DNA of 32,000 bases from Nostoc sp. UHCC 0702 (GTDB taxonomy: Bacteria > Cyanobacteriota > Cyanobacteriia > Cyanobacteriales > Nostocaceae), in contig CP071065.1 of assembly GCA_017164015.1 (NCBI GenBank), positions 777,409 through 809,408 on the forward strand, in the 5' to 3' direction. Below the pieces are notes generated by a model that was not told the DNA's origin, ran no database searches, and saw only the letters and a list, made by a program, of their open reading frames with translations. Positions 3,076 through 31,527 of this stretch are shown here, in pieces. The position numbers and the translations under genes are program-made. Position 1 is the first letter of the stretch. Every line of letters starts with the position of its first letter.

Positions 3076-3114
3076 AAACTGTTCTAATTACTAGCTTACA
3101 ACTTACTGAAACAA

Positions 3115-3256
3115 GGCGGGGCGGGGGAGCAGGGGAGGTGGGGAGCGGGGGAGATGGGGAGCGGGGGAGGTGGGGAGCGGGGGAGATGAGGGAGAAATAA
3201 CTCCTAACTCCTAACTCTTAACTCCTAACTCTTAACTCCTAACTCCTAACTCTTAA
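3115..3256. repeat. Composite simple-repeat block: (GGGGAGNN) octamers, gagaaataa linker, then (AACTCYT) x8 heptamers
   Basis: 3115-3195 reads ggggagca ggggaggt ggggagcg ggggagat and so on. 3199-3254 is eight AACTCCT/AACTCTT units. The same architecture recurs at 22179-22341. Confidence 0.9.
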
Positions 3257-3263
3257 TTCAGCA

Positions 3264-3434
3264 CTACTTTAGTCCGAGCCATGATAACACGCCTTGATTG
3301 GTGAGGTACTCAATCAAGACCATCAAGCCGAAGCCAATCATTGCGGCTCGACCATTCAATCGTTCAGCATATTCATTAAAGCCAAATTTCGGCTCTTCCA
3401 GTTTGGGGGTAACTGTTGGTTGTGGTTGTGACAT
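3264..3434 (-). CDS. hli: High-light-inducible protein (HLIP, one-helix CAB/ELIP/HLIP family)
   Basis: FGFNEYAERLNGRAAMIGFGLMVLIEYLTNQG is the canonical HLIP chlorophyll-binding helix. I place the start at the second Met (MSQPQPT, 3434) rather than the listed 3458. Confidence 0.85.
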   Translation of the reverse strand: MSQPQPTVTPKLEEPKFGFNEYAERLNGRAAMIGFGLMVLIEYLTNQGVLSWLGLK

Positions 3435-4951: not shown

Positions 4952-4985
4952 GAATTTGATATTAGATTGTGCCAAATTTATGAAG

Positions 4986-5132
4986 CTGACTTTTCACGTC
5001 ATGTGGAAAAGTTAACGCCAGACCTAACCCCCCAGTCCCCTTCCCTTCAAGGGAAGGGGGAGCAATTAAAGCCTCTCTCCTTATAGGGGAGAGGAATGGA
5101 AGCGGGGTTTTCCAGATCCCGTGAAAAGTCAG
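4986..5132. mobile_element. MITE copy A (147 bp) with 13-bp perfect terminal inverted repeats and 10-bp target-site duplication
   Basis: TIRs are ctgacttttcacg (4986-4998) and cgtgaaaagtcag (5120-5132). It is flanked by identical atttatgaag at 4976-4985 and 5133-5142. An internal hairpin reads ccccttccc-ttca-agggaagggg. A second copy lies at 29406-29597. Confidence 0.85.
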
Positions 5133-5134
5133 AT

Positions 5135-5845
5135 TTATGAAGAACTGCAAAAATGATTCAGATAATTATAAAGTTCACGGAATAAAGGACACCTTCGCTG
5201 TACTTCCAATGGATTAATATATTCTAATAGAGCAGGTGTATGCAATCCTTTAGAATAGCGTGTGGAACTGCTATCAAATTCTTCTAAAACACTTGAATCG
5301 ACTAGTGCTTGTGATAGTTTTTCTTGACAACAATTTCTTTGATGGTCATACTCACTAAAGGTTTCTGGGTCATCAAAAGGAATATTGATTTGCGTACTCA
5401 GCCACCAACGCATACGCTGATGTCTACTTCTAAAGTCTGGATGTCGAGCTACTGAATTATTCCAATCTGCTATTATCCAAGCTTCCAGTTCAGGAGCAGC
5501 AAATCCAACAAATATTGGAATATCAGTATTTCCTGATATTGCTGACAATATTATTTCTTTTTGCTGTATCGGATCGCGGCAATCTAAATCATCAAAAATT
5601 AAAATTAAATTACATATATTTGGTTCATATTGTAAACCTTTTGGTAACTCTCGCTGGATTTGCTCGATTAAACTTCTACCAGTTCTGCCATAACTATTTA
5701 TTTTATTAGGTTTAGGGCCAGGTTTTTGACTAATTGGTGTTTTTCGTTGAAATGAACATCCAGGAAAATTTTTTCTTAAAAAAGGAATTAGTCCTCTAAC
5801 TTCAGCTTCCCCACCGCCAGCGAAAACCCATACTACCACGGCCAT
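5135..5845 (-). CDS. Toprim-like protein, DUF4276-type (partner of upstream ATPase)
   Basis: 236 aa. N-terminal strand plus acidic motif VWVFAGGGEAEV, DxD-type motif LILIFDDLDC, then APELEAW. This order fits a Toprim-like fold and my recollection of DUF4276. Its ATG at 5845 overlaps the upstream ORF stop by 13 nt. Confidence 0.6.
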   Translation of the reverse strand: MAVVVWVFAGGGEAEVRGLIPFLRKNFPGCSFQRKTPISQKPGPKPNKINSYGRTGRSLIEQIQRELPKGLQYEPNICNLILIFDDLDCRDPIQQKEIILSAISGNTDIPIFVGFAAPELEAWIIADWNNSVARHPDFRSRHQRMRWWLSTQINIPFDDPETFSEYDHQRNCCQEKLSQALVDSSVLEEFDSSSTRYSKGLHTPALLEYINPLEVQRRCPLFRELYNYLNHFCSSS

Positions 5846-7149
5846 CCTCCAATACTAGGGTCGCCAACACGGTATAAATCACCTAATTGCCATCCTTCTT
5901 CTAGTTTTTCATTCAGCATTTCTTGGGAGAGTTTTTTTAGATAAAAATGCTTTTGATCTTCTGAAGAAAAGCAAAATACACTTTCTAAACAATCTGTGAA
6001 ATGATCTAGAAGATCAGGACTGTGTGTAGTAATAATTATTTGAGTTTTTCTAGCAGCTTTTTTAATCCACTCTGCTAAAATTGGCATCCATGATACATGC
6101 AATCCTAGTTCTGGTTCATCGATTACCAGTAATGAAGGAAGAACTGGCGAATGTAATATAGTAGCCCAACAAAGCATCCGCACAGTTCCATCTGACATTT
6201 CATTAAGATAAAAAGGTTCTTTTATATCATAAAAATGCCACTCTAATGTCAAAGACAAACGACCAGAACGTATTGGTCTGAGACGACGAGTCTTTGGTAA
6301 TATAGCCTTCATTGCTTGGTTAATACTTTCTTCAAAGTCTATATCTTGCTGAGTTAAATTATCTAAAACTAGAGGTAAATTGTCTCCGGTTAAAGATAAA
6401 TAAAGATCGCTTCCCCCTATTTTAGGTTCTGACATCCTAATCAAATTTAAATCCATATTATTGGCATTATAAAATTGCCAACTTGAGACTAATTCGATTA
6501 AAGCTCTTCTAATTTTATAAACAGATGTATTTTCAGGAGGATATTGGCTATCTTCAAGCAACCGGGGGATAGCATTAAGACCTAATAAATTAGTTGGTAT
6601 ATTATCTAAGCCTTCAAAATGAGTTGTTGGAACTTGACCTGGCTCATCATATACTGATACAGCACCCTTGCCAGATTCTCTGTCATGAAACTTATAGTAA
6701 TAAAAAGGATTAAATGTAGTTGTATCATATAAATTTTCCCCACTATATAAGTATTCTTCCGCAATACTAACTCCTCTTGGTTTCTTTCTATTCACAAAAA
6801 TTTTTAAATCAAGGATAGTACTATCTTTTGTATATATAATTACTTGTGGATTTTCCGGGAAACAAAAACAGTATGCAAGTCTTACTCTAGCAGGACTTTC
6901 TACATTGACATCTAAAATTCTATTACCTCCAATTTGGGCAACTGCATCCTCAAAACCACTGACACTACGACTGTCATCTGGTATTTTAGTTAGGCTATCC
7001 TTGAGAAATTTCAAGCAACTGATAAAATTGCTTTTACCTGAACCGTTTGAGCCTATAAATATATTGAGATTTTTGAGTCGTACTATTTGCTCTGAAGACA
7101 AGTTTTTATAGTTTTTAGTCACAAGAAAGCGAAGATGAGGTTGATTCAT
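5833..7149 (-). CDS. ABC-like ATPase (AAA_15/AAA_21 type, OLD/AriA/AbiLi-like ATPase module)
   Basis: 438 aa. Walker A GSNGSGKSN (K39), signature-like MSDGTVR, Walker B LLVIDEPELGLH, H-loop-like IITTHSPD. The coding sequence is AT-rich. Confidence 0.8.
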   Translation of the reverse strand: MNQPHLRFLVTKNYKNLSSEQIVRLKNLNIFIGSNGSGKSNFISCLKFLKDSLTKIPDDSRSVSGFEDAVAQIGGNRILDVNVESPARVRLAYCFCFPENPQVIIYTKDSTILDLKIFVNRKKPRGVSIAEEYLYSGENLYDTTTFNPFYYYKFHDRESGKGAVSVYDEPGQVPTTHFEGLDNIPTNLLGLNAIPRLLEDSQYPPENTSVYKIRRALIELVSSWQFYNANNMDLNLIRMSEPKIGGSDLYLSLTGDNLPLVLDNLTQQDIDFEESINQAMKAILPKTRRLRPIRSGRLSLTLEWHFYDIKEPFYLNEMSDGTVRMLCWATILHSPVLPSLLVIDEPELGLHVSWMPILAEWIKKAARKTQIIITTHSPDLLDHFTDCLESVFCFSSEDQKHFYLKKLSQEMLNEKLEEGWQLGDLYRVGDPSIGGWPW

Positions 7150-7645
7150 AACAGTAAAAACTTTCTAGATAATTTGCAATTCTATAATACTATTTATTCA
7201 ATTCTACACACTCAGCATGTATAGCAAATCATAAATACTTTAATTAACTCAATCTGAAAAAAAGTAATATAAATGTAACTTTTGGTATATTTGCACCAGC
7301 CGTGCAACATTTATTCTAAAGTTGAGGCTAGTTAATGGAGAGAATCTATAAAATTTTGATTCGGTTGACTGGTGCGATCGCGGCTGTAACTGACATTTCA
7401 GTATATTTTTATACGTACAATTTAGAGACTACAGTTATGAAGATTTATTAAAGGGCTATAGCTAAAACTTGTAATCTAGACTATTACTTCATGTCAAATT
7501 TTAGTATAAATTGTACATCTTAGATTTTGGTTTTGATCTAGCTATAGACATTTCAATAGAATTTAACAGTGGTATTAATTGGGTATTTTTTCAAAGGGCA
7601 GTATTTTTTTTACGCCATGATAGAAGCACAACATGAGGAGGTTGT

Positions 7646-8659
7646 ATGGAGACGCTAAAGTATTTTCTACCACAGATATGGTTTGTGATTTTAGCTCTCT
7701 TTCTCTTTTTATATGTGATGCTTGATGGGTTTGATTTGGGGGTAGGGATATTGTCTCTTACCGCCTCCGATGAAAAACGCCGTAGCGTTTTGATGACCAG
7801 CTTAAGCAATATTTGGGATGCGAATGAAACTTGGCTGGTTCTGATGGCGGGAGGTCTGTTTGGCGCGTTTCCCCTAGCTTACAGCACGATTTTGAATGCT
7901 TTGTATATCCCAATTATCATCATGATATTTGGATTCATCTTTCGTGCTGTGGCATTTGAATTTCGGGAGTTAGCAAACCGAAAATTATTTTGGAATTTTG
8001 CTTTTGGTGCTGGAAGTTTTAGCGCCGCACTCGGTCAAGGATTTGCTCTTGGTGCTGTGTTAAAAGGTATCAATGTTGATGAGCAAGGGCACTTTATCGG
8101 TACAACTTGGGACTGGCTAAGTATTCCCACAGTATTGGTAGCTTTGACGTTGATTCAAGGATATGTGTTGATTGGTTCAACTTATCTAATTTGGAAAACT
8201 ACAGGAGAATTACAAGACACACATTACAAAACTGCAAAAATTGCCGCTTGGACAACGTTAATTGGTGCCATTTTTATTACGATTACCACACCGATATTTT
8301 ATGAAAGTGTAAGGTCACGCTTATTTGATCGACCCCTAGTTTTTATTTTTGCAGTTATTCCGCTGCTGGGAGTATTATTAATTTCTCAACTCCTTACTAG
8401 TCTTATTCGGAAACAAGAAAGAGCGCCTTTTATCTGGACTATTCTATTATTTTTGTTGTCGTTCGTTGGCTTAGGATTGGTTGTCTTTCCTTACATCATT
8501 CCGCCTGAGATTACCATCTATGAAGCATCTGCTGATCCTAGTTCGTTGGTAATCATGTTGATATTTATTGGTTTACTGATTCCCGTAATGCTGTTCTATA
8601 ACCTTTATCAGTACATTGTTTTCCGAGGTAAGGTAACTGGTGGTCACTACGGCGAATAA
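7646..8659 (+). CDS. cydB: Cytochrome bd-type quinol oxidase subunit II
   Basis: 337 aa, polytopic. The N-terminus ...VMLDGFDLGVGIL...IWDANETWLVL..GGLFGAFP aligns by eye with E. coli CydB (TDGFDMGVGML...HWDGNQVWLI). GGAGG lies 9 nt upstream of the ATG. Confidence 0.85.
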   Translation: METLKYFLPQIWFVILALFLFLYVMLDGFDLGVGILSLTASDEKRRSVLMTSLSNIWDANETWLVLMAGGLFGAFPLAYSTILNALYIPIIIMIFGFIFRAVAFEFRELANRKLFWNFAFGAGSFSAALGQGFALGAVLKGINVDEQGHFIGTTWDWLSIPTVLVALTLIQGYVLIGSTYLIWKTTGELQDTHYKTAKIAAWTTLIGAIFITITTPIFYESVRSRLFDRPLVFIFAVIPLLGVLLISQLLTSLIRKQERAPFIWTILLFLLSFVGLGLVVFPYIIPPEITIYEASADPSSLVIMLIFIGLLIPVMLFYNLYQYIVFRGKVTGGHYGE

Positions 8660-10798: not shown

Positions 10799-11180
10799 GA
10801 TATCATATTCGCTTGATTACTTATTAAAACCGAAGAACCCCACCCCGCCAAAGCTATGCTTTGTCTCCCCTCCCCGTCAACGGGGAGGGGTTGGGGGTGG
10901 GGTTATCATATGTACTTGGCGCTTACTGGGAAATGCTATATCATATCCGCTTGATTACTTATTAAAACCGAAGAACCCCACCCCGCCAAAGCTATGCTTT
11001 GTCTCCCCTCCCCGTCAACGGGGAGGGGTTGGGGGTGGGGTTATCATATGTACTTGGCGCTTACTGGGAAATGCTATATCATATCCGCTTGATTACTTAT
11101 TAAAACCGAAGAACCCCACCCCGCCAAAGCTATGCTTTGTCTCCCCTCCCCGTCAACGGGGAGGGGTTGGGGGTGGGGTG
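10799..11180. repeat. 138-bp tandem repeat, 2.8 near-identical copies, each with a nested GC-rich hairpin
   Basis: Units start at 10799, 10937 and 11075. I see a single mismatch, tattcgc versus tatccgc. Each unit contains aaccccacccc...ctcccctccccg-tcaa-cggggagggg-tt-gggggtggggtt. The third copy is truncated after the hairpin. Confidence 0.9.
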
Positions 11181-11261
11181 CAATGATTGCGGGAATTATA
11201 ACTAATTAACTGGACATCATTGAAACCTGTTGTTGCATAGGCTGAAATGGCGGTTTTACGT

Positions 11262-12971
11262 GTTTCAATCCCCTTGCGGGGTAGTAGGAAGTTGAAACTG
11301 AAAAAGCCAAGCTCACAGACAAAGAACAGTATAGTTTCAATCCCCTTGCGGGGTAGTAGGAAGTTGAAACCATTAGCGCGTAGCTTTGGGAGAACTTCTT
11401 CAAAGTTTCAATCCCCTTGCGGGGTAGTAGGAAGTTGAAACTTCTGCCCAAATGTCCGCAGATAAGCTCTACTTGTTTCAATCCCCTTGCGGGGTAGTAG
11501 GAAGTTGAAACAAAATGTGTTTTTTCATCTCTTCTGAGATATCAGAAATGTTTCAATCCCCTTGCGGGGTAGTAGGAAGTTGAAACTACAATTTCAATGC
11601 TTGGGAAATCATCGTATTCAATGTTTCAATCCCCTTGCGGGGTAGTAGGAAGTTGAAACTGCTGACATGTGCCAACTTGCCTTAAATCAAGTTTCAATCC
11701 CCTTGCGGGGTAGTAGGAAGTTGAAACTCTTAAGTTTTGGTGCAAGTATTTCAACTATGTTTGGTTTCAATCCCCTTGCGGGGTAGTAGGAAGTTGAAAC
11801 TTGCATAATCCCTTTGTTGCTTTAGAATCCCGGCACGTTTCAATCCCCTTGCGGGGTAGTAGGAAGTTGAAACTCTATCGTTAGCTTCCCTGGCAAACCG
11901 AATGCATCGCAGTTTCAATCCCCTTGCGGGGTAGTAGGAAGTTGAAACTCCCATAAAGGCTTGCTCTACACTTGATGCTGAAGTAGTTTCAATCCCCTTG
12001 CGGGGTAGTAGGAAGTTGAAACGCATCAGCAGCTTTTACCCAAGGGGTTACTCTCAGGTTTCAATCCCCTTGCGGGGTAGTAGGAAGTTGAAACTCGGTT
12101 TTGGGAAATCCGGGGTGACTGGGTACAGTAAGTTTCAATCCCCTTGCGGGGTAGTAGGAAGTTGAAACAATCCCGATCCCTCCTCATTCGCAAAGCTGTT
12201 GACCGTTTCAATCCCCTTGCGGGGTAGTAGGAAGTTGAAACAGTTCACGATATAGATTTAGCAACCGCTTTTCCTGAGTTTCAATCCCCTTGCGGGGTAG
12301 TAGGAAGTTGAAACATAGATTTTTCTAAGTCAGGACAATAATACAAATCATTGTTTCAATCCCCTTGCGGGGTAGTAGGAAGTTGAAACTTTTGAGAACA
12401 TATATTGGCTATATATTCAGTCCATAGTTTCAATCCCCTTGCGGGGTAGTAGGAAGTTGAAACACGATGATAGAACAGGTATTACTATAGGTAGCATTGG
12501 TTTCAATCCCCTTGCGGGGTAGTAGGAAGTTGAAACCAAAGGGTATATGTCACGCTTCGGACAAAGGATGAGTTTCAATCCCCTTGCGGGGTAGTAGGAA
12601 GTTGAAACAGTAAACTTTTACATTTGCTTGATTTATCGTAAATTGTTTCAATCCCCTTGCGGGGTAGTAGGAAGTTGAAACTTGATGAACTGCGATCGCT
12701 TCTTGCACAGTATGAAGGTTTCAATCCCCTTGCGGGGTAGTAGGAAGTTGAAACTAGGTAAAGGTTCCATCGCGTCTGCAACTGCTCGTTTCAATCCCCT
12801 TGCGGGGTAGTAGGAAGTTGAAACTTTTTTTCCTTTGTTCTAATAAAATCATATTTATCGGTTTCAATCCCCTTGCGGGGTAGTAGGAAGTTGAAACTTA
12901 CCCATCACCAGAATTATACGAAGAATACCCCAAGGTTTCAATCCCCTTGCGGGGTAGTAGGAAGTTGAAAC
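11262..12971 (-). CRISPR. CRISPR array: 24 identical 37-nt repeats and 23 spacers of 31-38 nt
   Basis: Plus-strand repeat is GTTTCAATCCCCTTGCGGGGTAGTAGGAAGTTGAAAC. Repeat starts: 11262, 11334, 11405, 11475, 11550, 11623, 11691, 11764, 11837, 11912, 11986, 12058, 12132, 12205, 12278, 12353, 12427, 12500, 12572, 12645, 12718, 12788, 12861, 12935. Minus orientation is inferred because the reverse complement ends with hairpin CCCCGCAAGGGG plus ATTGAAAC, a Cas6-type 8-nt handle layout. A degenerate remnant (11190-11226, only ..cattgaaac conserved, 35 nt before repeat 1) lies at the left end. Confidence 0.95.
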
Positions 12972-13334
12972 CCTACCCTCTGAAACTGCTACTGAGCAAG
13001 GTTCCTGTGAGGGTTTTTGGCGGGGGAGAAATTTGGATGATTTTCAGCCGCACTTATTGCAAAATACTTGCATTTACCCAAACTATCGAAACGCTGTAAT
13101 TATTGATTTATCAAGGTTCTGGCGATTTTGGCGGCACTCCAGGGATTTTACTCCCGCTTCGCCCTGCCAAACATCAAGCTGATTACATGATTATATAATC
13201 ATTGTTCTCGATTGTCGAGGTTTTCTCAACTATATGTAACGGCAATTCATGAGTAGCCCTGAAGTGAATCAAGCTAAACCTCACATAGAATTGGTATAAA
13301 GACGCAATTCGCACTTTCATAGGAGTATCCAGCT
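12972..13334 (-). promoter_or_regulatory. Putative CRISPR leader / divergent promoter region
   Basis: 363 nt of non-coding DNA at the end opposite the degenerate repeat. It contains a perfect 16-bp palindrome ATGATTATATAATCAT (13187-13202) with TATAAT readable on both strands, and a repeated ttttggcgg motif. Confidence 0.35.
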
Positions 13335-13994: not shown

Positions 13995-14076
13995 GCCAGA
14001 ACGACTTCAAAATCCAAATAGGTGAGTAAGAATAAACATGACTACGTTACAAAACCTAAATACCCCTGAAACCGTA

Positions 14077-14137
14077 ACAACTAACAACTGACAACTGACA
14101 ACTGACAACTGACAACTGACAACTGACAACTGACAAC
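14077..14137. repeat. STRR heptamer tract (CAACTGA)n
   Basis: acaactaacaactgacaactgacaactgacaactgacaactgacaactgacaacc, read directly. Confidence 0.9.
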
Positions 14138-14176
14138 CCTCACAAGTCAACTTTATTGACGCCACCTACCTATTAA

Positions 14177-21168: not shown

Positions 21169-22173
21169 ATGAAAATCATCTTCTTTGGTACTCCTCAATT
21201 TGCTGTTCCCACCTTAGAAAAGTTGCTGAATCATCCAGAGTTGGAAGTTTTGGGAGTTGTTACCCAGCCAGATAAACGTCGGGAACGGGGAAATAAACTA
21301 ACCCCTTCACCAGTCAAAACCGTTGCGATCGCTCATAATTTACCAGTATGGCAACCCCAGCGGGTAAAAAAACACACTAAAACTTTAAACCAACTCCAAC
21401 AATTAGACGCAGATGTGTTTGTGGTTGTTGCTTACGGACAGATTTTATCGCCACAAATTCTAAATATGCCGAAATTGGGCTGTATTAACGTGCATGGTTC
21501 AATTTTACCTAAATATCGTGGTGCAGCTCCTATTCAGTGGTCTGTGTATAACGGTGAAAAAGAAACAGGCATCACCACAATGTTAATGGATGCTGGTATG
21601 GATACCGGCGCAATGCTACTGAAAGCAACTACACCCATTGGATTGCTGGATAATGCTGAAGAGTTAGCCCAGAGGTTATCTACAATTGGTGGAGATTTAT
21701 TACTAGAAACCCTTTTTAAGCTGGAACGTCAGGAAATTGAACCTGTTCCACAAAATGATTCCCAAGCGACTTATGCACCTTTGATTCAAAAGCAAGATTA
21801 TCATTTAGATTGGTCAAAAAGTGCTATCCAACTACATAATCAAATTAGAGCTTTTTACCCCAACTGTATCGCTAGCTTTCGCACCCAACCATTGAAAATC
21901 ACAGCTACCATTCCCCTTGGTTATGCTGACGATCGCGAGCTACCAATAGAATTAGAGAAAATACAAAAGAAATTGCCGCCTTTAACAAATATATCAGGTA
22001 GCCCAGGAGAAGTAGTAAGCATCGCCAAGGGAATAGGAGCGATCGTCCAAACCGGTGAAGGTTTGTTACTATTACAAAAAGTTCAACCAGCCGGCAAACG
22101 TCCCCAATCGGGGTGGGATTTTGTTAATGGTACTCGCCTAACTGTCGGGGAAGTGTTTGGTCTTGGTATTTAG
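21169..22173 (+). CDS. fmt: Methionyl-tRNA formyltransferase
   Basis: 334 aa. [39 protein letters not shown] (formyltransferase motif), and a C-terminal Fmt domain. Confidence 0.92.
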
Positions 22174-22178
22174 TAAAA

Positions 22179-22341
22179 GGGGAGCAGGGGAGGTGGGGGA
22201 GATGAGGGAGCAGGGGAGCAGGGGAGCAGGGGAGATGAGGGAGAAATAACTAATGACAACTGAGAACTGACAACTGACAACTGACAACTGACAACTAACA
22301 ACTGACAACTAACTCCTAACTCCTAACTCCTAACTCCTAAC
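22179..22341. repeat. Composite simple-repeat block: (GGGGAGNN) octamers, gagaaataac linker, (CAACTGA)n, then (AACTCCT)n
   Basis: The block fills the whole fmt/22323-ORF convergent spacer. G-rich octamers span 22179-22243, CAACTGA-type heptamers 22254-22310 and AACTCCT heptamers 22310-22341. The last tract overlaps the 3' end of the minus-strand CDS. Confidence 0.9.
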
Positions 22342-22688
22342 TTTTGGTAAAAGCGACAAGATTCACAAGGCCCCTCTGGGTTGACTGCACAGCGAATAAT
22401 TTCTGAATGAGCATTATAACAACAGGTAGCATCACCAATTACCCAACGTCCCTCTACTAAAGTTTTTTCTGCTGGTCTTTTAGCAGACTGGACGTAAATG
22501 GCTATAGTATTCAAGCGGTAACGCCCTGATTTTAATTGATATCTGTGGCGGCGTTCTAGAACCGCGTAGGTTTTACCTTCAAAATCCAAATAGTTTCCAG
22601 GTTGAGGAGTCCAATCAAGTTGGACTTTGCCGAGGGTCTGACGCGGATGCGTCAGAATCACCTCGGTTGGTAAAGAGTCTGGCTCCAT
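22323..22688 (-). CDS. Conserved-looking hypothetical protein with Cys-rich C-terminus
   Basis: 121-aa ORF. Cys pattern ..GDATCCYNAHSEIIRCAVNPEGPCESCRFYQ. It may belong to a cyanobacteria-restricted DUF, but I am not certain which. The last codons (LGVRS) and the stop are encoded by AACTCCT heptamers. Confidence 0.6.
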   Translation of the reverse strand: MEPDSLPTEVILTHPRQTLGKVQLDWTPQPGNYLDFEGKTYAVLERRHRYQLKSGRYRLNTIAIYVQSAKRPAEKTLVEGRWVIGDATCCYNAHSEIIRCAVNPEGPCESCRFYQKLGVRS

Positions 22689-26547: not shown

Positions 26548-26916
26548 TTAACGTCTAATTGGTAAAATACGCACTCTAGATAGAGCTTGGTCAACTGTCA
26601 CCAAAGCGCCTGACTCTAGTAAGGTTTCAAACTGGTTTAGGGCTGAAATGACTAAATTTTCGATACTGTTGGGCAAAACGTCTTGGGTGCGAACCTGAAT
26701 GACACTTGGACTATCAGCACCCGTTGCAGCTAGCAAGGAACCAAAGTCTAAATCATGTGTAAAGACAATATACTCATTACTTCTTGCCCACTCCATAATT
26801 ACCGAATCTTTCTCACGAGGATCGCCAACAGTAGACCAATGGACAGCAGAGATATTGTACCTTTCAAAAACCGCAACCCAATCAGGGGAAAGATTCATAT
26901 CAATCAAAATTTTCAT
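26548..26916 (-). CDS. PIN-like toxin, DUF5615 (Mut7-C-like) family
   Basis: 122 aa. MKILIDMNLSPDW...IVFTHDLDFGSLLA is typical of DUF5615. It overlaps the upstream DUF433 gene by 4 nt. Confidence 0.75.
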   Translation of the reverse strand: MKILIDMNLSPDWVAVFERYNISAVHWSTVGDPREKDSVIMEWARSNEYIVFTHDLDFGSLLAATGADSPSVIQVRTQDVLPNSIENLVISALNQFETLLESGALVTVDQALSRVRILPIRR

Positions 26917-27267: not shown

Positions 27268-28479
27268 ATGACACGAAAATGGCTTTCTATTGTGGGTATT
27301 GGCGAAGACGGGTTACAGGGATTAAGCGCGATCGCTCGTTGTGTTGTCAATGAAGCTGAAGTTATTATAGGCGGCGATCGCCATTTGGCAATGTTACCAC
27401 CGGATGATCAACGTGAGAAACTCACCTGGACATCTCCTATTACCGCCTCAGTAGCAGCAATTATCCAGCGTCGCGGTCAGTCAATTTGTGTGTTGGCAAG
27501 TGGCGACCCCATGTGTTATGGCATTGGCGTGACTCTGACGCGGCATATTCCTGTCTCGGAAATGACCATTATCCCCGCACCTTCAACCTTCAGCCTCGCC
27601 TGTGCCAGGCTGGGATGGTCTTTAACTGAGGTGGAAACCTTGAGTTTAAACGCTCGTCCACCTTCGCTACTCCAATCTTATATCTATCCTGGGGCGCGGC
27701 TGTTGATTTTGAGCGAGGGCAAAGATACACCTGCAATTGTTGCTGAGATATTGACAAAACGTGGTTATGGTGGTAGTAAAATCACAGTCTTAGAACGGAT
27801 GGGTGGTAGTCACGAGCGAATTGTGCAAGGTACGGCTGCCTCTTGGAGTGAAACTCAAATTGCTGCTTTAAATGCGATCGCTGTTGATTGTATTGTTGAT
27901 GCTGGGGTTGTGCCTTTGCCGAGGTTGCCAGGGCTATTAGATAACGCCTATCACCATGATGGACAGCTAACGAAGCACGAAGTCAGGGCGGTGACTCTTG
28001 CTGCTTTAGCCCCCACACCGGGAGAGTTGCTGTGGGATGTCGGCGCGGGTTGCGGTTCAATTTCTATTGAATGGCTGCGGACTCATGTTCGGTGTCGAGC
28101 GATCGCAATTGAACAAAACTCTTCTAGACTACATTACATTGCCGATAATGCCGCCGCCCTTGGTACGCCAAACCTGCAAATTGTCGAAGGTAAAGCGCCC
28201 CACGCCCTCAAAGACTTGCCTGCACCTGATGCCATATTTATTGGTGGAGGAGTCACAGCAGAGGGACTTTTCAATATTTGCTGGTCAGCACTGCGCCCAG
28301 GCGGACGTTTGGTGGCAAATGTCGTCACTATTGAAGGTGAGCAAACCTTATTTCAATGGTATCAACAAGTCGGTGGTAATTTTACTCGCATTGCCATCCA
28401 GAGGGCAGAACCCATCGGTAAATTTTTGGGTTGGCGAGCAATGGCACCTGTTACACAATGGGTAGTAGTCAAGTCTTGA
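27268..28479 (+). CDS. cobL: Precorrin-6Y C5,15-methyltransferase (decarboxylating), CbiE/CbiT fusion
   Basis: 403 aa. N-terminal CbiE-like LSIVGIGEDG...VIIGGDRHL. C-terminal CbiT-like SAM site LTKHEVRAVTLAAL..LWDVGAGCGSISIEW. Confidence 0.88.
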   Translation: MTRKWLSIVGIGEDGLQGLSAIARCVVNEAEVIIGGDRHLAMLPPDDQREKLTWTSPITASVAAIIQRRGQSICVLASGDPMCYGIGVTLTRHIPVSEMTIIPAPSTFSLACARLGWSLTEVETLSLNARPPSLLQSYIYPGARLLILSEGKDTPAIVAEILTKRGYGGSKITVLERMGGSHERIVQGTAASWSETQIAALNAIAVDCIVDAGVVPLPRLPGLLDNAYHHDGQLTKHEVRAVTLAALAPTPGELLWDVGAGCGSISIEWLRTHVRCRAIAIEQNSSRLHYIADNAAALGTPNLQIVEGKAPHALKDLPAPDAIFIGGGVTAEGLFNICWSALRPGGRLVANVVTIEGEQTLFQWYQQVGGNFTRIAIQRAEPIGKFLGWRAMAPVTQWVVVKS

Positions 28480-28495
28480 TCAGTAGGGGCGTTGA

Positions 28496-28628
28496 TAGTC
28501 AATAGTCAATGGTCAATGGTCAATGGTCAATGGTCAATGGTCAATGGTCAATGGTCAATGGTCAATGGTCAATGGTCAATGGTCAATGGTCAATGGTCAA
28601 TAGTCAATGGTCAATGGTCAACAGTCAA
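28496..28628. repeat. Long STRR tract: 19 heptamer units (TGGTCAA, with TAGTCAA/CAGTCAA variants)
   Basis: 133 nt equals 19 x 7, counted from the sequence. It fills nearly the whole convergent spacer. The stop codon of the minus-strand Uma2 gene (28625-28627) lies in the last unit. Confidence 0.95.
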
Positions 28629-29314
28629 TTATCCTTTGACAACTGCTTGACAAAATTTTGATGTTCTGGCGAATTTAATCCTTCTTGCAATACTGCTAAA
28701 ACTCTCACCATATCACCTGTCAACAAGGCTGGTACTGCTAACCACAAACCAGGCATTATCTGACTTTTAATAATTCCATTAGCATCTGGTTGCAGAGGCA
28801 CATACTCACTTTCACTCAAACCGAACCAATCCAGACGATTTTCTAAGATTTGCCAAACAATGTATTCTTGAATTCCATTGCGGCGATAAGCCTTTTTTTT
28901 GTCGTGCAAATCATAGGCTGCACTGCTGGCGGCAATTTCTGCTGCTAACTCTGGTGCGCCTTCAATGTAATCATCCTCTGTTAAGCGCGACTGTCCCCCC
29001 AGTTGATGATCAATTAACAAAACTCCATCTGGTTGAGGTTCATTATCTTGATCTAGACGCACTGTTGGATCAATTCCTAACTTGACACCTGGAGTAGCAA
29101 TTTGGTAAGTTCCCAACCAAATAACTATCTTGCCATGTGGTTCAGCATGACGTTCAAAACGTAGGGGAGATGCCACGTAGACGATTCCTTCAATTAGTTC
29201 AGCTTTTTTAATATCGGGTTTTGCCGTGTAACGACGCTCAAATTCATGGCGAGATAAGCGATCGCCATTTTCTAACGGTAGAGTTTGGTTAGGGTGTGGT
29301 TGCTGTCTCACCAT
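28625..29314 (-). CDS. Uma2-family (DUF820) restriction-endonuclease-like protein
   Basis: 229 aa. ..ENGDRLSRHEFERRY..AELIEGIVYVASP..HAEPHG.., PDGVLLID, and APELAAEIAASS are typical of the Uma2 family abundant in cyanobacteria. Confidence 0.8.
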   Translation of the reverse strand: MVRQQPHPNQTLPLENGDRLSRHEFERRYTAKPDIKKAELIEGIVYVASPLRFERHAEPHGKIVIWLGTYQIATPGVKLGIDPTVRLDQDNEPQPDGVLLIDHQLGGQSRLTEDDYIEGAPELAAEIAASSAAYDLHDKKKAYRRNGIQEYIVWQILENRLDWFGLSESEYVPLQPDANGIIKSQIMPGLWLAVPALLTGDMVRVLAVLQEGLNSPEHQNFVKQLSKDN

Positions 29315-29405: not shown

Positions 29406-29597
29406 CTGATTTTTCACGTTATGTGGAAAAATAAACCCAGAACCTAACCCCCTAGCCCCCTTCCCTAGTAGGGAAGGGGGAAATTCAAAGCCTCTAACGC
29501 CACTTGCTACAACGCGGGAAACCCGCGCAACGCAGGGCTACCTCCTTGTAGGGCAGAGGAATGGAAGCGGGGTTTTCCAGATCCTGTGAAAAGTCAG
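29406..29597. mobile_element. MITE copy B (192 bp), same family as 4986-5132, with a nested insertion of about 45 nt
   Basis: ctgatttttcacgttatgtggaaaa...cccccttccct-agt-agggaagggg...aggaatggaagcggggttttccagatcctgtgaaaagtcag. Relative to copy A there is an extra aacgccacttgctacaacgcgggaaacccgcgcaacgcagggctac after aaagcctct. The TIRs are imperfect, and it sits inside heptamer tracts, so no clear TSD is visible. Confidence 0.8.
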
Positions 29598-29681: not shown

Positions 29682-30428
29682 TTAACTTTGCAATTTTTCA
29701 AAAAGCCATGCTAAAGCACCATCAACATCGGCAACTTGTTCCCCTGGTGGTATGGCTGGACGATTTACCATCACAACCTTTAATCCTAATTCCCGTGCAG
29801 CGATAATTTTGGCATAGGTTGCATCACCACCGCTATTTTTGCTCACGATGGTATCGATGTTGTGGTGAATCAGGATTTTTCTTTCATTATCCAGGGCAAA
29901 GGGGCCGCGATCGCACAATATCATCCCTGGCGGAACAACAGCATCAGCAGTCGGCGGGTCAATCATCCGCATCAAAAACCAAATATCCTTCAAATCAGCA
30001 AAGACCGCTAATTCTTGTCTGCCGACGGTTAAAAATACCCTCTGTGCTTGGTTTTTTAAGACAGCAGCCGCCGCTTCGGTATTATCAACTTCCATCCAGC
30101 GATCGCCATTCACTTTTTCCCAAGGGGGACGAATCAACATCAAACGCGGTATACTCACAACAGTTGCAGCAGTTGCGGCATTCCAAGAAATTTGAGTAGC
30201 GAAGGGATGGGTAGAGTCAATGAGCAAATCGATATGCATTTCCCGCAGATAGCTAGCCAAGCCAGTAGCACCACCAAAGCCGCCAATCCGCACACTGCCA
30301 ACTAAAGTTGATGGTTCACGGGTGCGACCGGCTAGAGATGCGATCGCCTCAATTCCTGGGATAGTCGCAACTCTAGCAACTAGTTCAGCAGCATCTCCCG
30401 TTCCACCTAAAATCAAAACGCGCATCAT
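29682..30428 (-). CDS. cobK: Precorrin-6A (cobalt-precorrin-6A) reductase
   Basis: The start is placed at MMRVLILGGTGDAAELV (30428). The body has GGFGG..GLASYLREMHIDLLIDSTHPFA, typical of CobK/CbiJ. The 71 residues upstream in the listed ORF are translations of repeat DNA. Confidence 0.85.
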   Translation of the reverse strand: MMRVLILGGTGDAAELVARVATIPGIEAIASLAGRTREPSTLVGSVRIGGFGGATGLASYLREMHIDLLIDSTHPFATQISWNAATAATVVSIPRLMLIRPPWEKVNGDRWMEVDNTEAAAAVLKNQAQRVFLTVGRQELAVFADLKDIWFLMRMIDPPTADAVVPPGMILCDRGPFALDNERKILIHHNIDTIVSKNSGGDATYAKIIAARELGLKVVMVNRPAIPPGEQVADVDGALAWLFEKLQS

Positions 30429-30621
30429 ATCATGTCCGTTTAAACACTTATGATATCTGTGGAGGTCGGTAATTGGGAATTGGTAATTGGTAATTGGTAA
30501 TTGGTTTTGAGTATTACCTATTATATCATGTCCGTTTAAACACTTATGATATCTGTGGAGGTCGGTAATTGGGAATTGGGAATTGGTAATTGGTAATTGG
30601 TAATTGGTAATTGGTAATTGG
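30427..30621. repeat. 96-bp tandem duplication of the cobK leader, each copy ending in (GGTAATT)n heptamers
   Basis: atatcatgtccgtttaaacacttatgatatctgtggaggtcggtaattgggaattgg occurs at 30427 and again at 30523. Heptamer runs lie at 30468-30505 and 30564-30621. Confidence 0.85.
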
Positions 30622-30653
30622 ATTCTACTATGAGTCATCACATCTCACCCACT

Positions 30654-30793
30654 ACCCATTTACCCATTTACCCATTTACCCATTTACCCATTACCCATTA
30701 CCCATTACCCATTACCCATTACCCATTACCCATTACCCATTACCCATTACCCATTACCCATTACCCATTACCCATTACCCATTACCTATTACC
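30654..30793. repeat. Simple repeat: (ACCCATTT)x4 then (ACCCATT) about x14
   Basis: Read directly. It produces the artefactual PITHYPL ORFs 30611-30823 and 30618-30815. Confidence 0.95.
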
Positions 30794-30888
30794 AAGCAAA
30801 CCGACTATATCGTAAGTAATTAGCCGAACTTGATATCATAGCTTTGTCTGCGTTTTTTGTGTCTCTGCGGTTAGCTAAATTCCTCTGA

Positions 30889-31302: not shown

Positions 31303-31337
31303 CCGTACCTCGCAGATTTGTGGAACTATTAAGTAGA

Positions 31338-31495
31338 CTTCGGCGGGCATCCTGACTCACTTGATTTGAGATTTGGGATTTTTAATCATTTATCTAGAAT
31401 CACAAACTAGTTTACAGTTGCGGGACAGTGCCGGATTTACACCGAACTTTCCCCGTTACCTCTGGTGACTGACCCCCACCAGAACCGAATTGCCC
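31338..31495 (-). promoter_or_regulatory. Cobalamin (B12) riboswitch
   Basis: The minus strand reads ...ctggtgggggtcagtcaccagaggtaacGGGGAAAgttcGGTGtAAAtCCGGCactGtCCCGCaACTGTaAac... This matches the conserved core AGGGAA..GGTG.AA..CC..GC.G..CCCGC.ACTGT.A. It is followed by gAGTCAGGATGCCCGCCg (plus-strand 31342-31357), which matches 13 of 16 positions of the B12-box consensus AGYCMGGAGACCKGCC. Confidence 0.75.
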
Positions 31496-31499
31496 ATCC

Positions 31500-31527
31500 A
31501 TCATACCACTAGTATTCACAATGTAAA
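31500..31527 (-). promoter_or_regulatory. Candidate sigma70-type promoter for the riboswitch transcript
   Basis: Minus strand: TTTACA (31527-31522), 16-nt spacer, TATGAT (31505-31500). This would place the TSS just upstream of the riboswitch core. Confidence 0.3.

Follow-up and report, generated by a model that had tools for sequence, protein, structure and literature searches.

The present analysis identified, in a 32-kb stretch of DNA from Nostoc sp. UHCC 0702 (the window, whose positions are used throughout), a cassette of two overlapping minus-strand genes encoding an ATPase of the ATP-binding cassette (ABC) type and a small protein of the DUF4276 family. This cassette is probably a stand-alone, PARIS/OLD-like two-gene conflict module (anti-phage or abortive infection) of the HEC-01 type, associating a sensor ATPase and a nuclease effector. 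It belongs to the already catalogued HEC-01 candidate family and is not a new kind of system. Its components are the following:

5833-7149, minus strand: gene of the ABC-type ATPase, 438 aa, HEC-01A-like, with an SMC/Rad50-like head
5135-5845, minus strand: gene of the DUF4276 partner, 236 aa from the ATG at 5845, HEC-01B-like, putative Toprim-type metal-dependent nuclease
5833-5850, minus strand: coupling junction GGAGGATGGCCGTGGTAG, with GGAGG at 5850-5846, ATG at 5845-5843, GTG at 5839-5837 and the ATPase stop codon TAG at 5835-5833

An earlier reading of this DNA from its letters alone (the first-pass annotation) had described two minus-strand open reading frames (ORFs) overlapping by 13 nt, with the ATPase stop codon at 5833-5835 and the ATG of the partner at 5845. 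All this was found as claimed, and every motif that it quoted was located in the ATPase and its partner. Scanning a single genome for each GTDB species retrieved 79 loci; in nearly all of them, the downstream partner gene overlaps that of the ATPase in the same way. Intact copies of both genes are found at 55 loci, and the two are separate overlapping ORFs at all loci. The junction GGAGGATGGCCGTGGTAG is near-identical at the nucleotide level across 19 loci found in independent genomic contexts. The ATG is missing from three of these 19 junctions (L019, L029 and L058), whereas an in-frame GTG located 6 nt downstream of the ATG and a Shine-Dalgarno-like GGAGG located 6 nt upstream of this GTG are retained in every one. 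Because the ATG was lost in three loci while the GTG and the GGAGG persist, the ancestral and conserved start of the partner is probably the GTG (5839-5837), which would reduce the overlap to 7 nt (GTGGTAG) and the product to 234 aa. Whichever start is used, ATG or GTG, the two genes are translationally coupled. The C-terminus of the partner stops at the same place as those of its homologues, and both genes of the window copy are intact, with full-length ORFs and every invariant residue of the family.

The ATPase carries the motifs GSNGSGKSN (including K39), MSDGTVR (residues 318-324), LLVIDEPELGLH (residues 340-351) and TTHSPD (residues 374-379), and its motif map is as follows:

G33-S40 (K39): Walker A
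S319-D320-G321: signature
I343-D344-E345...H351: Walker B and D-loop
H376: H-loop

The residues G33-x-N-x-S-G-K39-S40, S319-D-G321, I343-D344-E345, G349-L-H351 and T374-T-H376-S are invariant or nearly so in 64 homologues. Variability (entropy) peaks at residues 81-180, which correspond to a beta-rich insert (residues ~85-180); the catalytic half hardly varies. The protein matches the Pfam families AAA_21 (1.5e-34), AAA_15 (5e-18) and SMC_N, and has a weak match to RecF. Its best match among the 148 PADLOC families is PDLC04175, HEC-01A (5.3e-50, 168.5 bits), a name borne by eight of the 10 top-scoring models; the lesser matches are AriA (1e-36), then PDC-M07A, AbiLi and mad3. Its scores against NCBIfam equivalogs are well under their cut-offs for MAD3 (71.2 vs 420 bits) and PtuA (34 vs 500 bits), and likewise for the retron Eco8 effector. 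A Foldseek search with its AlphaFold2 (AF2) model (predicted template modelling score, pTM, of 0.80) returned 297 matches in the PDB at E <= 1e-3, the best of which are PtuA, SMC, Rad50, cohesin and condensin heads, and GajA (probability 1.00, TM 0.40-0.47), PtuA being the closest structure (E 5e-11, TM 0.47). Sequence searches of the PDB also gave GajA among the matches and an alignment to AriA limited to the ABC motifs. Judged from sequence and predicted structure, the protein is an ABC/SMC-type ATPase whose class is clear and which has no close solved relative. Pfam, PADLOC, PDB and Foldseek thus bear out the AAA_21/AAA_15 ABC-type class that had been proposed, i.e., the one used by OLD, Gabija, PARIS, AbiL and Septu. 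The public protein collection includes an entry with 100% identity to this protein, namely an AAA family ATPase of Nostoc sp. UHCC 0702.

The partner matches the Pfam family DUF4276 (PF14103) over profile positions 33-191 of 192, with 30.8 bits (E 4.3e-07) for a gathering threshold of 30.2 bits, and this family is also matched by all 87 aligned relatives (best 2.8e-12), which upholds the assignment made in the first-pass annotation. Its similarity to HEC-01B is weak (4.8e-05, 21.4 bits, covering 63 of the 197 profile positions), and HEC-01B is the sole PADLOC partner family matched by 82 distant relatives, again weakly (best 1.9e-10). No PADLOC match to the AriB models was obtained for the partner or its relatives, and the score against the NCBIfam MAD4 equivalog is 13.9 bits for a cut-off of 160. 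The motifs of the partner are VWVFAGGGEAEV (residues 5-16), LILIFDDLDC (residues 80-89) and APELEAW (residues 117-123). The acidic motifs that had been singled out from the sequence are precisely those that do not vary across the 82 relatives (24-58% identity), in which E15, P37, D85, D86, D88, E119, W123, E161, K176, S178 and K199 are invariant; E15 is unchanged throughout the 87 close and 82 distant relatives. In the AF2 model (pLDDT of 87.7; pTM 0.85), the successive elements are b1 (3-9), a1 (13-26), b2 (30-34), a2 (55-73), b3 (80-86), a3 (92-106) and b4 (111-116), with a disordered Lys/Pro-rich loop (41-54) and a helical C-terminal half. This b-a-b-a-b-a-b order fits Toprim. E15 lies at the b1/a1 junction, D85-D86-x-D88 at the end of b3 and E119 after b4, and a glutamate after b1 with a DxD after b3 and further acidic residues after b4 is the published Toprim arrangement of DUF4276/HEC-01B proteins (PMC12065111, 10.1101/2024.01.29.577857). 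Because of these invariant acidic residues, of the matching strand order and of the published remote-homology work, a Toprim identity of the partner agrees with the data and has support in the literature, but it received no independent confirmation here. A metal or Fe-S cluster, suggested by seven cysteines conserved in the cyanobacterial clade, was also considered and dropped, only C219 being near-invariant in the broad family. It should be added that the public protein collection holds no cluster at >=90% identity to the partner (best 86%); the proteins publicly annotated for Nostoc sp. UHCC 0702 seem not to include this ORF.

The 79 loci come nearly all from filamentous cyanobacteria (Nostoc, Anabaena, Nodularia, Calothrix, Dolichospermum, Microcoleus, Coleofasciculus, Symploca and Laspinema), the few outliers being found in metagenome-assembled genomes (MAGs) of Desulfococcaceae and Pseudomonadota, and relatives across orders are 65-86% identical. 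They fall into 36 genomic context groups, the largest of which include 18 Microcoleus-type loci (after acpP-fabF) and 14 loci of Nostocaceae (beside ald). The pair is also found between gidB and sodB, between psbN and ParE toxin-antitoxin (TA) genes, and between prfA and HTH/DpnII restriction-modification (RM) genes, the RM context being seen in the syntenic loci L088 and L089. Calothrix sp. PCC 7716 (AP025018.1) carries two cassettes in different contexts (L017 and L029): one is intact and located after prfA beside a DpnII-type RM system, and the partner of the other is cut to its first 80 residues. Homology between contexts is confined to the region from start codon to stop codon, with no common non-coding sequence, and no shared cassette ends (inverted repeats, att sites or promoter) were found across 19 independent contexts. 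In 22 of 30 contexts, the gene upstream has the same orientation as the cassette (median gap, 125 bp). Adjacent genes in bacteria usually share their orientation about this often, and co-orientation was therefore dropped as a meaningful signal.

The occupancy of the ald site was analyzed in 60 metagenomic loci centred on close ald homologues (81-94% identity) and having enough downstream sequence. The pair is absent from 57 of them, including some with a 93-94% identical Ald and a syntenic WD40 gene, although a genome lacking it at this site may still carry it elsewhere; two of the three loci bearing the pair are decayed. In one of the loci devoid of the pair (L106), the 3′ end of ald and the 5′ end of cydA are common to the pair-bearing loci (up to 93% identity with L009), and 915 bp of unrelated sequence occupy the position of the cassette. 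More generally, the region downstream of ald is variable, with 184 ORF clusters among 314 ORFs.

The composition of the cassette is foreign to its surroundings, as the first-pass annotation had noticed. Windowed G+C content (GC) is 0.30-0.36 over 5250-7750 vs 0.42-0.47 in the flanks, and the two cassette genes have a GC of 0.34 and 0.36 and a GC at third codon positions (GC3) of 0.22 and 0.19. By comparison, ald has a GC of 0.46 and a GC3 of 0.35, and GC3 is 0.33-0.39 for ald, cydB, argS, the WD40 gene and minD of the window; the direction of the contrast with ald thus stands, whereas the figure of 53% previously given for this gene was an overestimate. This low GC is observed in all hosts (0.30-0.39 for the cassettes vs 0.37-0.51 for the flanks), Microcoleus (0.47) included. 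Concerning the highly iterated palindrome HIP1 (octamer GCGATCGC), its reported absence from 5135-7149 was confirmed, none of the 27 sites of the window being located between 4129 and 7374. However, this gap is only one of three that exceed 3.2 kb, and it is not a significant signal from the window alone. The weight of the argument is carried by 60 homologous cassettes, which contain three sites in 121 kb vs 96 expected (flanks, 0.79 per kb; P ~ 4e-37), i.e., a 32-fold depletion, of which ~2.6-fold is due to base composition. The HIP1 argument is therefore weak for the single locus and strong for the family. Taken with the empty ald loci, the AT-rich and HIP1-poor composition agrees with what had been proposed: the cassette is an accessory, patchily distributed element.

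Both genes are under purifying selection, with a constraint weaker than that of ald. The ratio of nonsynonymous to synonymous divergence (omega) is 0.11-0.34 for the ATPase and, in six of the seven pairs of loci, 0.21-0.45 for the partner, compared to 0.05-0.12 for ald, that is to say three to four times the value of ald; the outlier (1.89 for the partner in L007-L008) corresponds to a synonymous divergence (dS) of only 0.013. Between the window and L005, omega is 0.16 and 0.21, giving no sign of neutral drift. Within the ald-linked group, the identities of the ATPase and Ald are weakly correlated (rho 0.42, compared to 0.77 for Ald and the WD40 protein) and those of the ATPase and its partner are discordant (rho 0.33; for example 90% vs 73% for L005-L007). 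These weak correlations suggest recombination within or around the cassette. The dS of the ATPase gene is lower than that of ald in seven of seven pairs, an estimate that the extreme bias towards A+T at third codon positions may depress.

Decay was detected in ~17 of the 79 loci. It is asymmetric: the partner alone is disrupted in nine loci (L050, L051, L029, L049, L057, L062, L066, L012 and L020) and the ATPase alone in three (L006, L070 and L074), even though the length of the ATPase gene is 1.85 times that of its partner (binomial P = 0.006). Some of these loci belong to MAGs, in which sequencing errors are possible. L050 and L051 still have the junction and the initial codons of the partner, the remainder of the DUF4276 gene being deleted; effector swapping, which was considered for these two loci, was dropped, as the partner was lost by internal deletion. 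Such a bias agrees with a costly or toxic effector that the ATPase keeps in check and whose loss would be tolerated or favoured.

By analogy with the systems compared below, the ATPase would be co-translated with the DUF4276 partner through their coupled junction and would probably sequester it in an inactive complex. The variable beta-rich insert (residues ~85-180) is the likely sensor surface, which would perceive an infection cue. Binding or hydrolysis of ATP by the engine formed by Walker A, Walker B, the signature and the H-loop would then release or activate the partner, whose putative acidic metal site (E15, D85/D86/D88 and E119), together with K176 and K199, would cut nucleic acid. The predicted outcome would be either abortive infection of the cell or degradation of the invader.

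HEC-01 is a PADLOC candidate system made of an ABC ATPase with a TOPRIM-like partner and was found embedded in Hma systems; its HEC-01B protein was aligned to BpOLD, with which it has a common metal site (Payne et al., 10.1101/2024.01.29.577857). The DUF4276 family also corresponds to Mad4 of MADS, provides an effector domain in Menshen (PMC12065111) and was described as Toprim (PMC12065111, PMC11464382). The first-pass annotation considered that the pairing of such an ATPase with DUF4276 had no experimentally assigned function; this view is outdated, the pairing being that of HEC-01, which was tested twice with mixed results, and DUF4276 being found in MADS as Mad4. The Nostoc cassette resembles HEC-01 by its adjacent, same-strand genes encoding an ABC ATPase and a small DUF4276/TOPRIM-like protein and by the best match of its ATPase, HEC-01A. 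It differs from it by the weak similarity of its partner (21 bits), indicating a divergent and largely cyanobacterial branch (only 269 clusters at 50% identity), and by its location outside any Hma system or defence island, whereas embedding in defence loci was the basis on which HEC-01 was discovered. As in MADS (Mad3/Mad4), an AAA_15/21 ABC ATPase is associated with a DUF4276 protein, but the window encodes no methyltransferase or other mad gene, the MAD3 and MAD4 scores are under their cut-offs and the cassette stands alone.

The PARIS structure paper groups MADS3-4 and AbiL with the systems that associate an ABC ATPase with a TOPRIM protein (PMC11464382). Like PARIS, the cassette splits a sensor ATPase and a Toprim-type effector between two genes of one operon; its ATPase matches AriA (1e-36), and the conserved engine and variable sensing surfaces reported for AriA (PMC11464382) are a pattern also displayed by the Nostoc ATPase. 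However, the partner belongs to DUF4276 whereas the AriB protein of PARIS belongs to DUF4435, PARIS is typically carried by phage satellites or prophages whereas the clade of the cassette is chromosomal only, and the substrate of PARIS is tRNA. OLD and GajA also combine an ABC ATPase with a Toprim metal-dependent nuclease, and GajA is among both the fold and the sequence matches of the ATPase, but they are fused polypeptides whereas two coupled genes are found here, no GajB-like helicase is present and TM is ~0.4. Finally, Septu and type I-A retrons (PtuA-PtuB) are two-gene associations of an ATPase and a nuclease effector, and the ATPase finds its closest structural match in PtuA; unlike the DUF4276 partner, PtuB is an HNH nuclease, and the score against the PtuA equivalog is far below its cut-off (34 vs 500 bits).

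On both sides of the cassette, the window shows remodelled or repeated DNA:

7150-7645, unstranded: AT-rich intergenic region of 496 bp between the divergent ATPase and cydB genes, with a cydA remnant at ~7464-7603 and a HIP1 site at 7374
4977-5141, unstranded: element resembling a miniature inverted-repeat transposable element (MITE), with 34-nt terminal inverted repeats (4977-5010 and 5108-5141), overlapping the stop codon of the partner

The intergenic region, previously described as a spacer of about 500 bp in front of a cydB lacking cydA, indeed has this organization, except that a remnant of cydA survives. In relatives, a cydA-cydB pair is divergent from the ATPase gene and separated from it by 198 bp. 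The remnant (~140 bp, 7464-7603) was recognized by tblastn (45% over 38 aa) and blastn (71% over 102 nt): cydA was deleted in this genome, leaving cydB (7646-8659) orphan and probably non-functional as a cytochrome bd oxidase. The 496-bp region presumably holds the promoter of the cassette; a promoter scan gave 14 vs 11.8 expected by chance, and a terminator scan was likewise not above chance. On the other side, the MITE reported at the 3′ end of the cassette was confirmed and has a second copy at ~29406-29597 (82-83% identical), these copies measuring ~165-190 bp and containing internal GC-rich palindromes. It is absent from the cassette elsewhere, the sequences of relatives past the stop codon of the partner being unrelated. 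The other neighbours in the window encode a fasciclin protein, a WD40 protein, Ald, CydB, ArgS, a sugar kinase and MinCDE.

Several results weigh against a role of the cassette in defence or against the nature assigned to its effector. The first HEC-01 representative to be tested did not protect E. coli (10.1101/2024.01.29.577857), whereas for a later one, from a cold seep, protection of E. coli B was reported against one or more of the phages T4, T5 and T7 (10.1101/2024.09.26.614923). The enrichment beside defence genes on which the first-pass annotation would have its proposal checked was not seen: among the 251 ORFs found up to 5 kb away from the cassette (31 independent contexts), the load of PADLOC matches is similar to that of 123 control ORFs located 6-10 kb away, giving no clear enrichment in defence islands. 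The proximal matches are scattered (a few type II RM pairs, a GmrSD-like HEC-06, generic kinases and methyltransferases), and "mad3" and "mad8" matches are also obtained with control ORFs and therefore reflect generic ATPases. The neighbours of the cassette are mostly housekeeping genes, and within host lineages the cassette keeps a stable synteny, as would also be expected of a gene pair long resident in the chromosome. No relatives of the cassette were found in PLSDB plasmids or IMG/VR contigs, and the phages from GenBank yielded only three remote matches (22-25% identity). Concerning the partner, Foldseek searches of its model against the PDB and BFVD found nothing significant (best E 0.02, TM <= 0.30) and no Toprim protein in the top 50 matches, profile searches of the PDB with the close (A2) and broad (A4) alignments gave no match, and none of the 87 members matched the Pfam families Toprim, Toprim_OLD, DUF4435 or RloB at E <= 1. 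The Toprim-like nature proposed for this protein is thus in keeping with the order of its motifs and strands and with published work, but received no support from Foldseek, Pfam or the PDB profiles.

The cassette could instead be a selfish addiction module similar to TA systems, in which the DUF4276 protein would be the toxin and the ATPase its neutralizer, and which would persist because its loss is harmful, phage defence not being the selected function. This alternative is unlikely. A compact and translationally coupled two-gene unit, the loss of the partner far more often than that of the ATPase alone, the lack of association with defence islands and the ParE-type TA genes that sometimes adjoin the cassette would all be expected of it; furthermore, Pfam calls AAA_21 a "putative AbiEii toxin, type IV TA system" and the PDB depositors term AriA an "antitoxin". 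However, three loci keep an intact partner beside a broken ATPase (a premature stop would nevertheless also abolish the translation of the coupled partner), the cassette was not found on plasmids, a favourable setting for addiction modules, simple addiction would not require a variable, sensor-like insert in the ATPase, and both PARIS and one HEC-01 representative show phage-triggered activity. The addiction and defence readings are not mutually exclusive. It is decidedly improbable, on the other hand, that the pair has a host function in filamentous cyanobacteria, such as chromosomal DNA maintenance or repair by an SMC/RecF/Rad50-type ATPase and a Toprim protein such as RecR. Such a function would account for the match to SMC_N and the weak one to RecF, for SMC and Rad50 head matches as good as those of defence ATPases, for housekeeping flanks with a frequently co-oriented upstream gene (22/30 contexts), and for a strictly chromosomal pair that is syntenic at the level of lineages, 65-86% identical across orders and under purifying selection. 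It is difficult to reconcile with the absence of the pair from 57 of 60 close ald loci and its decay in ~17 of 79, with a foreign composition and a 32-fold HIP1 depletion in all hosts, with the weak congruence between the tree of the cassette and host markers and the mosaic alleles of the ATPase and partner, and with the relatives found in MAGs of Desulfococcaceae and Pseudomonadota; moreover, the strongest profile matches are all ATPases from defence systems, and omega is three to four times that of ald.

The window copy might also be an inactive relic, in line with a partner ORF apparently left unannotated (no protein at >=90% identity) when the ATPase of the same genome is listed, with the overlap of the MITE and the partner stop codon, and with a cydA deletion that remodelled the upstream region, where no promoter signal exceeds chance. 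The full length of both ORFs, the presence of every invariant residue, the intact junction, the C-terminus of the partner ending where its homologues end and the omega values between the window and L005 (0.16 and 0.21) make this very improbable. Lastly, there is a rather slim chance that the partner is structurally distinct from a conventional Toprim nuclease and/or that the clade is renewed between chromosomes without a mobile vehicle. The confident model devoid of fold match in the PDB and BFVD and the invariant set E15/DDxD/E119/E161/K176/K199 may indicate such a distinct enzyme, whose substrate and activation by the ABC ATPase could differ from those of OLD, Gabija and PARIS. Renewal may proceed by homologous replacement from a common AT-rich and HIP1-free pool of alleles; if so, the odd composition would be maintained and not merely un-ameliorated.

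The window also holds several features unrelated to the cassette. About 4 kb from it, a CRISPR-like array (11249-12975) comprises 24 identical 37-nt repeats (GTTTCAATCCCCTTGCGGGGTAGTAGGAAGTTGAAAC) and unique spacers of ~35-38 nt. It appears to be an orphan array: Pfam detected no cas gene in the 32-kb window, and the array has no Rfam CRISPR-DR match. Between argS and this array, three tandem 138-nt units (10800-11213) each contain the palindrome CCCCTCCCCGTCAACGGGGAGGGG; a 146-aa ORF that overlaps them has no Pfam match and is probably spurious. Intergenic tracts of tandem heptamers or octamers occur at 2438-2514, 3109-3264, 14047-14165, 22164-22351, 28467-28662 and 30670-30807, with units including CAACTGA, GGTCAAT, TTACCCA and GGGGAGC; we take them to resemble the short tandemly repeated repetitive (STRR) sequences of heterocystous cyanobacteria. 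A cobalamin riboswitch (31325-31504, minus strand; Rfam RF00174, 61 bits) lies beside cobalamin-biosynthesis genes encoding CbiJ (29682-30641) and a TP_methylase protein (27268-28479). Small accessory-type genes encode a Uma2-family putative restriction endonuclease and a DUF5615 protein, at 28625-29314 and 26548-26916, respectively, both on the minus strand.

In environmental genomes, pairs of HEC-01-type ATPases and DUF4276 proteins count among the commoner candidate defence systems, and the results of the two tests published so far disagree. The cyanobacterial clade described here constitutes a natural data set, with dozens of intact, coupled and stand-alone copies, a variable insert mapped in the ATPase and a short list of invariant candidate catalytic residues in the partner, and this in a phylum where defence against phages has been little explored. 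The decay patterns point to the small protein as the costly effector. Two properties of this clade deserve emphasis: the foreign composition of the cassette in every host despite synteny at the level of lineages and with no recognizable vehicle of transfer, and the confident model of a partner that has no detectable structural neighbour. For the annotation of Nostoc sp. UHCC 0702, this work indicates that the 236-aa ORF, seemingly lacking from the public protein set, is a real gene.

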